Positions 4,482 through 64,000 of a stretch of DNA of 64,000 bases are shown here, piece after piece. Position 1 is the stretch's first letter. Every line of letters starts with the position of its first letter. The notes beneath the pieces are model-generated. The model made no database searches and was not told where the DNA came from. It saw only the letters and a program-made list of their open reading frames with translations. Origin of the DNA: Chitinispirillaceae bacterium (lineage in GTDB: Bacteria; Fibrobacterota; Chitinivibrionia; Chitinivibrionales; Chitinispirillaceae); the NCBI GenBank assembly GCA_016929595.1, contig JAFGIN010000044.1, positions 14,269-78,268 of the forward strand. The letters are read 5' to 3'. The position numbers were made by a program, and so were the translations under genes.

Positions 4482-5798
4482 CTAAAAATACAATATCCGC
4501 TTTCCACCTTTAAAAACACTGACCCGACGAGTCGATTCTGATAGTGCGACAGCAATCGCTCTGGTTGCACAACTGATATTTACTGCTGCTGTATGACGGG
4601 CACCGAACCCTTTGAGAAGTGGATCCTGATTATTCTCAGCTTTCAGAAATACACTGGAGGTAAGAATGACTCCATCCCCCCTGATAATAAAAGCTCCATC
4701 GAGCTTTGAGAACTCCTTGATAGTCGCTTCCAGGCCAGGATCAAGCACATTACGGTTCTCTTCACGGTAGCCACCAAACGGGTTTACCACCATCTGCTGA
4801 CAGGATTTCAGAACCTCTTCAGAATCCCCGAGGATAAATATTGTACCAACCGGTTTCCCCTCCCTCCCTTCAGCAGCCAGTTCGCCTGCGATCTGGATAA
4901 TTCTGGCCAGAACATGATGTTCAAGGTCAAGGGGGCGACTCTCGGTACTGGTAAGGAAGAAAAGGTCAAACCTTGACGTATCGGATATAAGTAATGAATC
5001 GATTTTTCCGGAACCCGGTTCACCCAGAACACTGATAATACGGCTGTTTTTCTTTAACAGACCACGTGAAATAAGGTAGATAAGAACTAGCTCAGCCTGA
5101 CTTGTACGATTAACATTTCCAAAAGGAAGCTGAAGAATTTCATTGACACCTGCAATCTTTTCCGGGTAAAGATTCGGATCTGGACAGACAAGATAGAACG
5201 CGCCCTTAAATTTTTTCAGGTTTACCGGTGGGATACCTTCAGTAACATCATGATACACAATTGCAGCCACATTAAGTTCAGATCCGAGTTCACAGGCTTT
5301 TTCCAGCATGTGTGAGGCAGTGAGCTGCGCGGTAGTCAATTTTCCTGACCGTCGTACTACTGCGGGTGCTCCATTAAGGAGATTGAATAGTTTTTTAGTG
5401 CTTTTTGCTTTCAGTAATTCTTCTACAGTTTCAGGATCATTCAACCTTTCAGCTACCAGTGCCAGTATCTTGAGATGTTCAAGCCCATCTCCAACAATCA
5501 GAATGATTAACCGGACTTTTGTGGGATCATTGGGATCGTAATCGATTCCCTCAGGACTTAATCCGATTGCCGCCTGCGTTGATTTGAACCCGGGTATCAA
5601 CGCATGGGGAATGGCGATTTCAGGAAGTAATCTGGTTGAAATTGTCGCTTCGCGTTCCTGCACGAGATCGAAAATCTGATTACGCTCGATTCCATGTGCT
5701 TCAGCGTCAATAAGAGCAATCAACTCCTTAAACGCTTCATCCCGTGTTCTGGCTTTCAGAAGTGTGGTACGTTCTATATTGAAAAATTCACTTGACAA
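4482..5798 (-). CDS. Diadenylate cyclase (DAC domain, c-di-AMP synthase) with an N-terminal PTS EIIA type-2 (PtsN/EIIA-Ntr-like) regulatory domain.
   Basis: The C-terminal part (LDGAFIIRGDGVIL...GARHTAAVNISCATRAIAVALSESTRRVSVFKGGKRI) matches the DGA and RHRAA motifs of the DisA_N/CdaA DAC domain. The N-terminal part (LPEIAIPHALIPG with a conserved His) matches PTS_EIIA_2. Confidence 0.75.
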   Translation of the reverse strand: MSSEFFNIERTTLLKARTRDEAFKELIALIDAEAHGIERNQIFDLVQEREATISTRLLPEIAIPHALIPGFKSTQAAIGLSPEGIDYDPNDPTKVRLIILIVGDGLEHLKILALVAERLNDPETVEELLKAKSTKKLFNLLNGAPAVVRRSGKLTTAQLTASHMLEKACELGSELNVAAIVYHDVTEGIPPVNLKKFKGAFYLVCPDPNLYPEKIAGVNEILQLPFGNVNRTSQAELVLIYLISRGLLKKNSRIISVLGEPGSGKIDSLLISDTSRFDLFFLTSTESRPLDLEHHVLARIIQIAGELAAEGREGKPVGTIFILGDSEEVLKSCQQMVVNPFGGYREENRNVLDPGLEATIKEFSKLDGAFIIRGDGVILTSSVFLKAENNQDPLLKGFGARHTAAVNISCATRAIAVALSESTRRVSVFKGGKRILYF

Positions 5799-10318: not shown

Positions 10319-10782
10319 AATTCGTAATTTTTTATACCAAAAGAAACATTAAAAAACAGTTTCATTAATATACTGCAAGCCATTTTTAAATTGTTATTAA
10401 TAATAACACCCCGGATGATAATCGAACGATCCATATACAACGGGAAAAGAGCGCAGACGAGGTTTTCTGGTACCTGAACAGTACGATTTCTTAACTGCAA
10501 TAAATTACTCATTCTGACATATAATATTGCTCTTCTCACTACAAGTTTTAACTTTTATTAATAATTCATACTCTGAATATTTCAATCATTTATCAACCGT
10601 TTCATGATTTGACATTATTAACTTTTATGGTATAATTAAGTTAGTTGGTAATCAGTTTATTAAACTGGTTTTTGGACACATTAAAATGCCTTTTATCAAC
10701 ATCATGCAAGCACCATACCATATGCTGTTAAAGTTTGTTTCAAATACAATCTGTTGTTAACATTTTTTTTCAAGGAGTATAC

Positions 10783-43806: not shown

Positions 43807-45549
43807 TTATCTATTCTTTATAAGAACAAGTTTTCTTGCATCGAGGACCGTGATTTTCCCATCATTGTCAAGGTCAGCAGATGGTTTGACATCGGCAGGT
43901 TTATTTTTAAGAGAAGTAATTACTGCAATGTCAGCATTATCAACATCGCCATCACCATCCTGATCACCATCACTACTGGATTTAACAGCGAATTCACCCC
44001 CGTGGTTAACAACAGCCCACACAATCTTCTTTTCCGTGTCGATACCGTAAGTCCCGATACCAAAGGATGATTTGCAGGGACCAACAACGAATTTCGGTTC
44101 ACTGCTGAAATTCAGACTGGTAGCACCAACCCAGTTACCATTTCCATCTTTGGTGACAAGTGACAGCGGACCGGATAATTCACCTTTATATGAGAGTGAA
44201 AGTGTGTAAATGTCGCTTTCATCACTGCCAAGATTATTCGCCATACCCCATAATGTGAGTACATCACTTTTAAGATCACTTGCAGCATCACTCTTTGATT
44301 GCCATCCAGTAGTAATATTCTGTACGAGACTTCTGCCATCATAAAGAGCTGGAGAGATAATGTTCTCACCGTTTATAATCGACGCTTTCGTATTTTCGGA
44401 TCCGCTTAATTTACAGGTGTCTGAAACAACGGTCAAAGTATTACCGGCAGTTACAACGTATTCTTTACCATTCAGACTATATCCGAACGTTTCTCTTTTC
44501 TGGAAAGAAAGAACAGGTGTGACGTTGAGATTGCAATCAACCTCAGATCCCCATTCACCGCCGCACCCATTCAGAGATGAATAATAATCACAGGTAATCC
44601 GGGCACCGTCGACCGTAAAGATATAATAACCGACGGTGTACAATTCCTGCGCAAGCGGCAGTTCACGGGGTGAATTACCGGAATAACGCTGATCAGCAGA
44701 TGGAATTACAGGTGTATAAAACTTGTAACTGTTTGAAGCACCTATCAATTGCTTGATTGTATAATTCCTGTCCGGACTATAGACAATGGAACGATGGTGC
44801 ATATGATCATGGCCACCGAAATAATACCGGACACCATTATCGCTGAGTGCTTTGAAAAATTGATTTTGAGCCGAGATGTTACTTGACATATTGGAACCAA
44901 AGAGGACATCAAAATGATTTTGACCTATAATATTTTTATGGGCCATAACAAAGGCATGGGTATTTGCATCCCTGGAACCAAGAACATCATTAACCCACCC
45001 GATCTGATCGATCATGTTGTTATTAGTCAATCCGGAGTTATCTTTTCTTGTAAACTGATCAAGTAACACGAATCGAACATTATTGTAGTCAAACGAGTAA
45101 CTGAGACATTCAAGATTCATAGATGCGCTCTGGAAATTACTTGCGCCGAAAGTATTTATGTAACCACAAGCCTGTGGGAAAGAAGTGGAGAAGTAAATTG
45201 CAGCACTCGAGGAGGATTCATGGTTTCCCCGGAGTGGAAAAAATCCAATACCTGCATCGATGAGTTCCTGCGCTCCCTGAGCGCGTGTATCAAAAGCCGG
45301 TGAGCTATACCTGTCAACAAGATCCCCTACCTGCAATACCATTTTCACATCATGCCTGATAAATTCAGCGTTAAGCTGCCTGATAATTCCCGCTGCAACT
45401 GTGTTGGGATTTTCCCCATCAATATTACTTTTCCACTGTGTATCGCTCATCAGACCGAATTTCCATGATTCCGCAGATACTACCGCTGTTGCCATAAACA
45501 ATGCCCCGATACCCAGGGCGACCGCTTTGGCTTTCCTGAATTTGACCAT
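43807..45549 (-). CDS. Secreted calcineurin-like metallophosphoesterase with a C-terminal type-I dockerin module.
   Basis: Metallophosphoesterase motifs (GDLVDRYS, LRGNHES, GGHDHMHHRS). Two dockerin Ca-binding repeats (DGDGDVDNADIAVI and DLDNDGKITVLDARKLVLI). Confidence 0.7.
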   Translation of the reverse strand: MVKFRKAKAVALGIGALFMATAVVSAESWKFGLMSDTQWKSNIDGENPNTVAAGIIRQLNAEFIRHDVKMVLQVGDLVDRYSSPAFDTRAQGAQELIDAGIGFFPLRGNHESSSSAAIYFSTSFPQACGYINTFGASNFQSASMNLECLSYSFDYNNVRFVLLDQFTRKDNSGLTNNNMIDQIGWVNDVLGSRDANTHAFVMAHKNIIGQNHFDVLFGSNMSSNISAQNQFFKALSDNGVRYYFGGHDHMHHRSIVYSPDRNYTIKQLIGASNSYKFYTPVIPSADQRYSGNSPRELPLAQELYTVGYYIFTVDGARITCDYYSSLNGCGGEWGSEVDCNLNVTPVLSFQKRETFGYSLNGKEYVVTAGNTLTVVSDTCKLSGSENTKASIINGENIISPALYDGRSLVQNITTGWQSKSDAASDLKSDVLTLWGMANNLGSDESDIYTLSLSYKGELSGPLSLVTKDGNGNWVGATSLNFSSEPKFVVGPCKSSFGIGTYGIDTEKKIVWAVVNHGGEFAVKSSSDGDQDGDGDVDNADIAVITSLKNKPADVKPSADLDNDGKITVLDARKLVLIKNR

Positions 45550-62131: not shown

Positions 62132-63766
62132 ATGGCACACCAGACTGAAGAAATTACAACCCGCATTAAAAACAACCCATCCCGGAAGCGCCCCATTTCG
62201 CATTCATTACTTGTTGCATCAGGTATATTTCTAAGTCGTATCGTGGGTTTTGCCCGCCAGAGGATATTTGGGTACTATTTTGGAATCTCTGATGCCGCAG
62301 ATATTTTCAATACCGCTTTTCGTATTCCTAATTTTTTGCAGAATCTTTTTGGCGAGGGAGCACTCTCAGCATCATTCATTCCCGTTTATTCAAAACTTCG
62401 CGCTCAAGGGGAAGGGAAAGAAGCTGAAAATGTTGCACATTCGGTTTTTTCAATTTTATCGCTGGTCATATCATTATTTGTTCTGATTGGTATTGTTGCA
62501 GCCCCTGCACTTGTGTCTGTTATTGCCCCCGGTTTTGATGGCGAGAAGAGAATTCAGACAATTCTTCTTGTCCGGATTCTTTTTCCTGGAGCTGGAGTAC
62601 TGGTTCTTTCGGCATGGTGTCTTGGTATACTCAACAGCCACCGGCGATTTTTTCTTTCGTATGCAGCTCCAGTTGTATGGAACATCTCTATTATTGCATC
62701 TCTGGTCATCTGGGGCAGAGTGTCATCTCAGGACAGGCTTGTTGAGATTGCCGCATGGGGATCGGTTGCAGGATCGGTTTTTCAGTTTGTAATCCAGTTG
62801 CCGCTTGTTATGAAGCTGCTTGGCTCAATACACTTTACTACCGTATGGAAAGGAGAAAACATCCGCAAGGTTGTGTTGAATTTCTTTCCTGCATTTGTAA
62901 GCCGAGGCGTCATCCAGATATCAGCATTTGCCGATTCTGCAATAGCAAGTATTATCGGATCGGGAGCAGTTGCCATTGTCTCAACAGCTCAGATGCTTTA
63001 CACATTACCGATAAGTCTTTTCGGCATGTCGGTTTCTGCATCCGAACTGCCTGAAATGTCTTCGGCAACAGGCACCAGAGATGAGATCGCAAAGAAATTA
63101 CAGCTGAGAATAAATTCCGGTCTCAGGAAAATCTCCTTTTTTGTAGTACCATCTGCAGTAGCTTTTTTTGCATTAGGTGACGTCGTCGCTGCAGCATTGT
63201 TTCAAACAGGAAAGTTTGATATACAGGGGGTTCGCTATGTATGGGCGACACTTTGTGGTGCATCGTTCGGACTACTTGCATCAACATTTGCCCGTCTCTA
63301 TTCATCAGCATTTTATGCACTACATGATACAAAAACGCCATTCAAGTTTGCCTGTATTCGCGTGGTTTCAGGTGTATCATTGAGTTTTTTTCTTGCAACA
63401 CAAATACCACGCCATCTTGGAATCGATCCGCAATGGGGCACGGCATTCATGACACTTTCATCAGGTATCGCAGGGTGGTGCGAATACGCTCTGCTTAGAA
63501 AAACCCTTAACAGAATCATTGGTAACTCAGGGCCAGGATTTTTATCTGTCATAGCTTTATACGGAGCAGCACTTACAGCAGCTCTCGCTGGCTGGGGAGG
63601 AAAAATTATAATCGGATACTTCGGGCCGATTCACCCCATGATCTCAGGTGCAGTAATTCTTGGTATTTACACCACTGTATATTTTCTTACAAGCTCTCTT
63701 CTTGGCATCAGTGAAGCGCAGAAAATTGTGAAAAGGGTTTTTCCGTTTTTTAAAAACCGGCAGTAG
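62132..63766 (+). CDS. murJ: MurJ/MviN family lipid II flippase (MOP superfamily).
   Basis: The N-terminal SRIVGFARQRIFGYYFGISDAADIFNTAFRIPNFLQNLFGEGALSASFIPVYSKL closely parallels the MurJ N-terminus. There are 14 predicted TM segments. Confidence 0.8.
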   Translation: MAHQTEEITTRIKNNPSRKRPISHSLLVASGIFLSRIVGFARQRIFGYYFGISDAADIFNTAFRIPNFLQNLFGEGALSASFIPVYSKLRAQGEGKEAENVAHSVFSILSLVISLFVLIGIVAAPALVSVIAPGFDGEKRIQTILLVRILFPGAGVLVLSAWCLGILNSHRRFFLSYAAPVVWNISIIASLVIWGRVSSQDRLVEIAAWGSVAGSVFQFVIQLPLVMKLLGSIHFTTVWKGENIRKVVLNFFPAFVSRGVIQISAFADSAIASIIGSGAVAIVSTAQMLYTLPISLFGMSVSASELPEMSSATGTRDEIAKKLQLRINSGLRKISFFVVPSAVAFFALGDVVAAALFQTGKFDIQGVRYVWATLCGASFGLLASTFARLYSSAFYALHDTKTPFKFACIRVVSGVSLSFFLATQIPRHLGIDPQWGTAFMTLSSGIAGWCEYALLRKTLNRIIGNSGPGFLSVIALYGAALTAALAGWGGKIIIGYFGPIHPMISGAVILGIYTTVYFLTSSLLGISEAQKIVKRVFPFFKNRQ

Positions 63767-63892
63767 GAGTGAATAATTATTCGCCCCTGCTGGAATGAAA
63801 TACCGACCAATTTCCCACATGCAAAAATTGATAAATTTGTTATTATGCCCAATCATTGTCATATCATATACCATACACGCAGAATTGATTAT

Positions 63893-64000
63893 ATCCCCCG
63901 TAGGGGCACGTTGCAACGTGCCCCTACGTTGGATCAACGTGCCCCTACGTTGGATCAACGTGCCCCTACGTTGGATCAACGTGCCCCTACGTTGGATCAA
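63893..64000. repeat. Perfect tandem direct-repeat array of a 21 bp unit (cgtgcccctacgttggatcaa, at least 4 copies). It is preceded by an inverted copy of the 12-mer core, which forms a perfect palindrome (cgtaggggcacg ttgcaa cgtgcccctacg). The array runs off the window end.
   Basis: Direct reading of 63893-64000. The units are identical, with no unique spacers. Confidence 0.9.

Follow-up and report, generated by a model that had tools for sequence, protein, structure and literature searches.

At the right-hand end of the window (the whole 64,000-nt stretch of DNA that we have analysed) the lipid II flippase gene murJ is followed on the same strand by a fragment of a RAYT/TnpA_REP gene, and this fragment hosts a hairpin and a 21-bp tandem array that runs off the last base (Table 1). 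That the array lies just downstream of murJ had been seen in an earlier sequence-only reading of this DNA, and it does. The closest named homologues of the MurJ protein come from Chitinispirillaceae and 'Fibrobacter sp.' MAGs (77-79%). Between 54814 and 61408, on the strand opposite murJ, are genes for two SAM methyltransferases, a GT4 glycosyltransferase, an asparagine synthase homologue and a TPR-GT2 fusion, and this glycan-synthesis block places the window end in a cell-envelope polysaccharide locus. Two further tandem repeats were reported by TRF in the window, ATCACC at 43939-43973 (5.8 copies, 68% matches) and a 29-nt unit at 10715-10773 (two copies, 80% matches). Both are unrelated to the array discussed here.

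Table 1. Features at the right-hand end of the window and the evidence for each
Feature	Position	Strand	Evidence and remarks
murJ, lipid II flippase, upstream neighbour	62132-63766	+	544-aa ORF; PF03023 on identical protein
Imperfect 32-nt palindrome CAGTAGGAGTGAATAATT/AATTATTCGCCCCTGCTG	63761-63792	none	83% complementary; fold
5'-truncated RAYT/TnpA_REP ORF fragment, subclass 2.4-like	63773-64000	+	tblastn, HMM, phmmer; open to window end
HUH catalytic motif, codons cat tgt cat (H-C-H, PNHCH)	63854-63862	+	translation; alignment with 12 RAYTs
'Double-foot' REP hairpin	63893-63934	none	21-nt arms, 19/21 paired
Tandem array of the 3' hairpin arm	63914-64000	+	TRF; 21-bp unit CAACGTGCCCCTACGTTGGAT; continues past window end

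The hairpin, the array and the RAYT fragment

The array has a period of 21 and 100% matches over 4.1 copies, with no indels (TRF score 174), and so is the perfect array of at least four copies that had been described from the sequence alone. Because it reaches the end of the window, its copy number is at least 4.1, a figure that rests on the window's own assembly. Ahead of it a palindromic copy of the 12-mer core with TTGCAA at its centre had been noted, and this is borne out by a perfect 30-nt palindrome at 63899-63928 (CGTAGGGGCACGTTG followed by CAACGTGCCCCTACG), which codes RRGTLQRAPT. The palindrome forms the inner part of a longer hairpin, whose arms (63893-63913 and 63914-63934) are complementary at 19 of their 21 positions. 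Arm symmetry thus spans 21 nt, and the 21-bp unit is therefore the entire 3' arm. The hairpin has the form GTAGGGGCACG...CGTGCCCCTAC, with the loop TTGCAA in the window, and the palindrome is laid out as C-GTAG-GGGCACGTTG/CAACGTGCCC-CTAC-G, i.e. as a double-foot REP of subclass 2.4. Both arms are closed by the same ACG, found in the window within ACGTTG at 63908-63913 and 63926-63931. Folded as single-stranded DNA, the region reaches -36.9 kcal/mol (z = -9.0).

The 12-mer CGTGCCCCTACG occurs five times, once inverted (63899-63910) and four times directly, where 0.07 occurrences are expected by chance. Apart from these five copies it is absent from the 64 kb, even with one mismatch allowed, and an 11-mer search with two mismatches gave no above-chance matches elsewhere in the 64 kb. 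Unlike what a REP-rich genome would show, the window holds no further REP copy, only the weak GTAG palindrome at the end of murJ, and a scan of the whole window against Rfam at gathering thresholds gave 0 matches. The view that this is not a CRISPR array is upheld, as such an array needs repeats of 24-48 bp and unique spacers of similar length, and the units here are contiguous, identical and without unique spacers.

It had also been suggested that a 7-aa repeat protein might be encoded, as RAPTLDQ on one strand or LIQRRGT on the other. The first half of this suggestion stands. The plus-strand RAPTLDQ frame, in which no stop occurs from 63773 onwards, gives IIIRPCWNEIPTNFPHAKIDKFVIMPNHCHIIYHTRRIDYIPRRGTLQRAPT(LDQRAPT)n. 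It is the continuation of the RAYT fragment (IIIRPCWNEIPTNFPHAKIDKFVIMPNHCHIIYH...RRGTLQRAPT(LDQRAPT)n), so that translation and alignment place the array, read as (QRAPTLD)n, in the same frame as the RAYT codons, and RAYT homologues carry 7-codon arm repeats in frame. The lengths of the hairpin (30 nt) and of the unit (21 nt) are both divisible by 3, and no stop interrupts the frame before the window end. The second half has fallen: the minus-strand LIQRRGT frame (63644-64000) runs into the 3' end of murJ and lacks homologues, and we regard it as spurious. A coding repeat with orthologue support, which the sequence-only reading had named as the finding that would speak against it, is essentially what the RAYT homologues reveal.

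Several searches make homology of the fragment to RAYTs convincing. In tblastn the RAYT of survey locus L016 matches the window at 63827-63949 on the plus strand, and it also matches 11 of the survey loci. A local HMM of the locus RAYTs matches the fragment at HMM positions 52-108 (E = 3.4e-11). The sole NCBIfam match is NF047646 (18.2 bits, E = 0.0018, against a cut-off of 80), although a fragment of 76 aa is too short for this full-length cut-off. In a phmmer search of the whole library of 1.84 billion representatives, the non-repeat part (residues 2-59) matches RAYT-type proteins of ~200 aa, e.g. P0254 at E = 6e-10; these proteins have WQRNYYEH and YIxNP motifs, and NF047646 is their only family match. 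The best phmmer matches, P0241-P0253, were discarded as they align with the repeat part of the query alone and are unrelated low-complexity repeat proteins, e.g. P0243, P0246, P0248 and P0251. A word-indexed protein search with the 76-aa fragment gave no match at E <= 0.001. Aligned with residues 55-126 of the intact, 192-aa P0026, the fragment is 50.7% identical.

The HUH motif is situated in VIMPNHCHIIYH (63842-63877) and provides the HuH of subclass 2.4, 12 codons ahead of the hairpin. Its middle residue is Cys, which is outside the published [IFV], and the same NHCH is found in the closest relative (P0256/L081). The Trp and Tyr motifs, which would be proof of a RAYT gene, would fall past base 64000; relatives with the same linker have both WQ and YIxNNP.

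This copy of the gene is truncated. About 54 N-terminal RAYT codons are absent, as homology begins at HMM position 52 (residue 55 of P0026), and the N-terminal part was not found in any frame of the window. The complete core, of about 194 aa with N-terminal beta1/alphaA, is therefore missing from the window RAYT. The fragment begins 6 nt past the murJ stop, behind the stop codons TAG at 63764-63766 (that of murJ itself) and TGA at 63770-63772. Because the N-terminal codons are missing and the fragment abuts the murJ stop, we regard it as a remnant and, the gene being 5'-truncated, 'coding' here probably means 'formerly coding'. The imperfect palindrome at this junction has a single-stranded DNA fold of -7.9 kcal/mol (z = -3.4; 2 of 200 shuffles were equally good). 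Its GTAG gives murJ its TAG stop and RAYT homology begins within its 3' arm. It is possibly a decayed second REP, which would mark the breakpoint of the deletion or recombination that truncated the RAYT gene.

A relative with an 87%-identical MurJ (L080, JGI 3300048599) has neither remnant nor hairpin after murJ. The murJ 3' neighbourhood is therefore not conserved in the lineage, which implies either a lineage-specific acquisition in the window or a loss in the relative. At 7639-8000 of L080, an AT-rich spacer of 360 nt follows murJ and is succeeded by a DUF2750 gene on the opposite strand.

The linker hairpin across RAYTs and other loci

The position of the hairpin within the gene is not peculiar to the window. 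In an alignment of 12 RAYTs from diverse phyla (37-88% identity), the linker that follows PNHxHGII codes RGTA..RAPT, which is the hairpin, and lies between the HUH strand and an EQFGKP motif. The homologues used are of ~190-200 aa and have WQRNYYEH and YIxNNP motifs. The sole relative with a solved structure is the E. coli TnpA_REP (4ER8), in which the HUH and W..Y blocks flank an insertion of ~47 positions of the family profile. The family is very large. With a profile of eight locus RAYTs, at least 7998 clusters among the 8000 candidates scored were matched at E <= 1e-10, the source names of these clusters being 'REP element-mobilizing transposase RayT' and 'REP-associated tyrosine transposase'. 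All of the best 120 members, from these at least 7998 clusters, have a hairpin-coded motif in the linker. Among these 120 the hairpin reads RGT..APT in 97, VGAR..AVPL in 13 and is degenerate in 10; VGAR..AVPL is the same hairpin DNA in another frame than RGT..APT. At least two arm motifs are found in 65 of the best 120 (e.g. RRGTLQRAPTIMQRAPTIMQRTPT, RGTMHRAPTTTPHRAPTTTPHRAPT and VGARHVGARHAVPL).

This type of gene has been described. Quentin et al. (2018, BMC Genomics 19:475; PMC6006769) define TnpA_REP subclass 2.4, which is RAYT group 4 of Bertels et al. (2017), by a HuH motif NH[IFV]H at the end of strand beta3, by WQ and YIxNNP motifs and by a median length of 194 aa. Its 'double foot' REPs begin with 5' GT[AG]G and end with 3' C[TC]AC, and they are inserted inside tnpAREP at a site that separates HuH from Y, with the frame kept intact; the insertion domain is variable, which is ascribed to short DNA repeats (PMC6006769). 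Group 4 is distributed over 17 classes and is common in Cyanobacteria, Chlorobia and Caldilineae (PMC5581495). GTAG REPs are known from Cyanobacteria, Chloroflexi and PVC bacteria, their termini often serve as the TAG stop of a flanking ORF, and REPs inside ORFs as well as tandem reiteration with bits of flanking DNA are on record (PMC3733652). A full-text literature search with the hairpin sequence returned eukaryotic PCR primers only.

We searched one genome per species for places where the 12-mer stands in two direct copies within 30 nt. There are 72 loci with at least two such copies, where we estimate a chance expectation of about 0.1, and they span Chloroflexota, Cyanobacteria, Planctomycetota, Omnitrophota, Acidobacteriota, Gemmatimonadota, Chlorobium and others. 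Many consist of the hairpin, GTAGGGGCACG-loop-CGTGCCCCTAC, followed by extra direct copies of one arm. Loops of GCATGC, ATGCAT, TTGCAA and GCGCGC are found. The arm copies recur with periods of 10 to 41 nt, and what separates them is usually the loop or something close to it.

In L016, L032 and L060 the hairpin and array are in frame in an ORF of ~200 aa, directly after MPNHFHGIIWIV. With 80.9 bits (cut-off 80), the L016-type ORF belongs to NCBIfam NF047646, which is named REP-associated tyrosine transposase, and Pfam gives it a weak Y1_Tnp match. In-frame arm arrays like that of the window are found in L016, L060, L032, L072, L027, L011 and P0026. The period is a multiple of 3 in seven of seven arrays in RAYT ORFs versus 28 of 66 elsewhere (Fisher p = 0.004), although the seven of seven overstates independence somewhat, as L016 and L060 are close relatives. 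The same hairpins flank RAYT genes in L053, L061, L067, L013, L048 and L081, as in REPtrons.

A good example is the P0026 gene, which is the intact counterpart of the window arrangement. Three independent assemblies of it (L076-L078) show the 30-nt palindrome of the window, CGTAGGGGCACGTTGCAACGTGCCCCTACG, letter for letter and at the matching codon position. Behind it the arm is repeated twice more with a period of 21 nt (ATAATGCAA-CGTGCCCCTACG), and IEQFGKP comes next.

The closest relative of the window remnant is L081 (Logan SRR22541071; regions 4659-4690, 4891-4921 and 5001-5522), which is 85% identical in nucleotides over 63823-63920 of the window. Its RAYT homology stops exactly at the centre of the internal hairpin. 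L081 has two flanking copies of the double-foot REP. The ~200 nt past the hairpin centre are 69% identical to the sequence that follows an upstream flanking REP (E = 4e-15), which suggests that REPs have recombined or that the repeat element is larger and headed by a REP. As homology in L081 ends at the hairpin, the right flank of the window may not be RAYT either. The N-terminus of the L081 RAYT is intact.

The survey also yielded some variants. The RAYT ORF of L011 (6-962) has, besides the usual linker hairpin, an additional one with arm repeats, which is inserted behind the YYVTIC strand and read in a different frame (VGARHAVPLRHAVPLRHAVPQ). Ahead of this additional hairpin a 24-nt unit (NTGDGHTR) is present three times, and the ORF, of 319 aa, stays open. 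Arrays of 33-110 nt period are found at L071 (1087-1337), L051 (16-179), L033 (2093-2203), L055 (5936-6058), L005 (3104-3357) and L038 (3353-3655), in Chloroflexus, Chloroflexota, Runella and Anaerolineae MAGs. Their units hold the 12-mer and part of the other arm (GCACGG...), a RAYT is absent from the DNA examined, and they look like whole REPs reiterated with flanking DNA. In Streptomyces (L003, L012 and L024) and other Actinomycetota (L007, L019 and L044) the 12-mer occurs two to three times in high-GC tandem repeats without an inverted copy. Such repeats may have nothing to do with the REP family, e.g. as chance matches in GC-rich DNA, or they may be a different element.

Comparison with known systems

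The window locus resembles subclass 2.4 in its NHxH-type HUH, in the REP feet 5' GTAG and 3' CTAC, in a REP that lies in frame in the beta3-alphaC linker with short DNA repeats varying the linker length, and in a patchy spread over many phyla. It differs in that its copy is a 5'-truncated remnant fused to the murJ end, with Cys in the HUH, and in an array that is longer and more perfect than most (at least four identical 21-nt arm copies). In addition, the host appears to be Fibrobacterota-like, a phylum not highlighted in the subclass 2.4 reports.

With the canonical REP/BIME/REPIN systems of E. coli and Pseudomonas (Nunvar 2010, Bertels & Rainey 2011) the locus shares a GTAG-tagged, GC-rich palindrome and the association with a Y1/HUH RAYT. 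However, in canonical REPs the GTAG is unpaired and at one end, whereas in the window it is paired with CTAC; canonical REPs have hundreds of extragenic copies, whereas the window has one locus in 64 kb; and the window reiterates one arm, not the whole hairpin. The IS200/IS605 TnpA proteins (Y1 HUH) belong to the same catalytic superfamily, as reflected in weak PF01797 and NF033573 matches, and like RAYT enzymes they recognise hairpins in single-stranded DNA. That said, the window has no IS structure or tnpB, its hairpin is intragenic and not at element ends, and NCBIfam puts the relatives of the window RAYT in REP_Tyr_transpos and not in IS200. Finally, coding minisatellites or VNTRs, e.g. 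those of bacterial surface-exposed loops, also have an in-frame repeat with a period that is a multiple of 3, and in both cases perfect copies suggest recent slippage and strain copy-number variation is likely. Unlike these, the unit here is a mobile-element hairpin arm, whose DNA sequence is conserved although it is read in two different frames.

Origin of the array and its alternatives

On the evidence above, we conclude with good confidence that the array is the tandemly amplified 3' arm (21 nt, seven codons) of a double-foot REP in the post-HUH linker of a truncated subclass-2.4/group-4 RAYT gene. This arrangement is already published for subclass 2.4, and the window array is a real but ordinary instance of it. 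We think it most likely that the array in this truncated gene does not itself serve a function and is a by-product of REP/RAYT biology. The perfect identity of the units indicates a recent expansion, or a longer array that was incompletely assembled.

Such an array may have been generated by slippage. A polymerase would stall at the stable hairpin and slip between the ACG microhomologies, thus duplicating the loop and one arm, and once two copies were present more slippage could enlarge the array. Inside ORFs, selection would retain only those periods that are divisible by 3, and the extra residues would be tolerated as the linker is a peripheral loop. A less likely alternative is that the RAYT itself cleaves and rejoins at GTAG/CTAC on single-stranded DNA, which is hinted at by the loss of homology at the hairpin centre in L081 and by the REP-following sequence of ~200 nt found there.

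It is possible, if rather unlikely, that the intragenic REP is a functional cis element of RAYT genes and not a tolerated passenger. Selection on DNA or RNA structure would fit a hairpin that is kept at one gene position, in many phyla and in two frames; the 30 nt are identical between the Fibrobacterota-like window remnant and the unrelated, intact P0026 gene. If this were true, the hairpin would be a 'seed', i.e. the enzyme's own substrate carried along in horizontal transfer, or an autoregulatory target, and the arm arrays and hairpin truncations (the window, L081) would be footprints of the enzyme on its own gene.

We consider it distinctly improbable that the hairpin and array work at the 3' end of the murJ transcript as a non-coding element of the REP/BIME kind (a stabiliser, terminator or protein-binding site), with the RAYT frame as a relic, although this would be compatible with the main explanation. 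In its favour, the truncated RAYT copy probably does not give rise to an enzyme, a hairpin of great stability lies 133 nt past the murJ stop on the same strand, and REPs are mostly found downstream of ORFs, where a role as RNA elements is possible (PMC3733652). However, an intrinsic terminator scan of 63500-64000 found no terminator-like site with a T-run, the window has no Rfam match, and the absence of such an element from the relative with the 87%-identical MurJ argues against a conserved role in murJ expression. Promoter-like matches in 63500-64000 are consensus matches only.

Could the identical copies be an assembly artefact, e.g. a loop in a de Bruijn graph, so that the real locus has one hairpin or another copy number? 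The copies are 100% identical and the sequence ends inside the array. Two independent Logan contigs, L001 (SRR13394437) and L079 (SRR8925804), have an identical junction of murJ, remnant and hairpin, and both end at the equivalent of window position 63925, after the first 12 nt of the first unit. The exact two-unit string had 0 matches in JGI metagenome contigs; a MurJ-based search for the locus in the same collection gave relatives of 23-29% at best. Exact-protein look-ups with MurJ and a 99% variant returned only contigs that end inside the hairpin, and the right flank was not found among them. A k=31 graph break at 63925 could be due to either the palindrome or the array. As the palindrome alone can explain the Logan breaks, these do not confirm the tandem copies, but breaks are expected here with or without a real array. 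Furthermore, the junction TTGGATCAA is not hairpin sequence and requires at least a second arm copy, homologous arrays of 2-7 copies lie in the interior of long contigs from many genomes, and the P0026 gene shows the same 21-nt period in three independent assemblies. We therefore give an artefact very little probability.

The least tenable reading, and one we see almost no room for, is that of the sequence-only reading, which had likened the 21-bp units to iterons or a multimeric transcription-factor operator, bound by an initiator or regulator at two helical turns: the regular spacing, the perfect conservation and a GATC in each unit speak for it, whereas the core is a REP arm common to the linkers of thousands of RAYT genes across phyla and so is not replicon-specific, RAYT codons and the unit share one frame, periods of 10 to 41 nt elsewhere show that spacing by 21 bp is not conserved, and upstream are murJ and glycan-synthesis genes with no rep or initiator gene in view. 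GATC phasing of the Dam type was also dropped. The window has 326 GATC sites where 291 +/- 17 are expected (1 of 100 shuffles reached 326), at most a weak, window-wide excess, with no sign of a special use of GATC.

The most direct use of these results is for annotation: the array should be labelled as a repeated REP arm within a RAYT pseudogene, and not as an element of regulation or replication. Assembly breaks and length variation from strain to strain are likely at the array. More widely, the survey quantifies a published but little-known trait, that the RAYT genes of group 4 harbour, in frame, a REP of their own. Alone it opens no new question, but its numbers may aid the study of REP-RAYT co-evolution.
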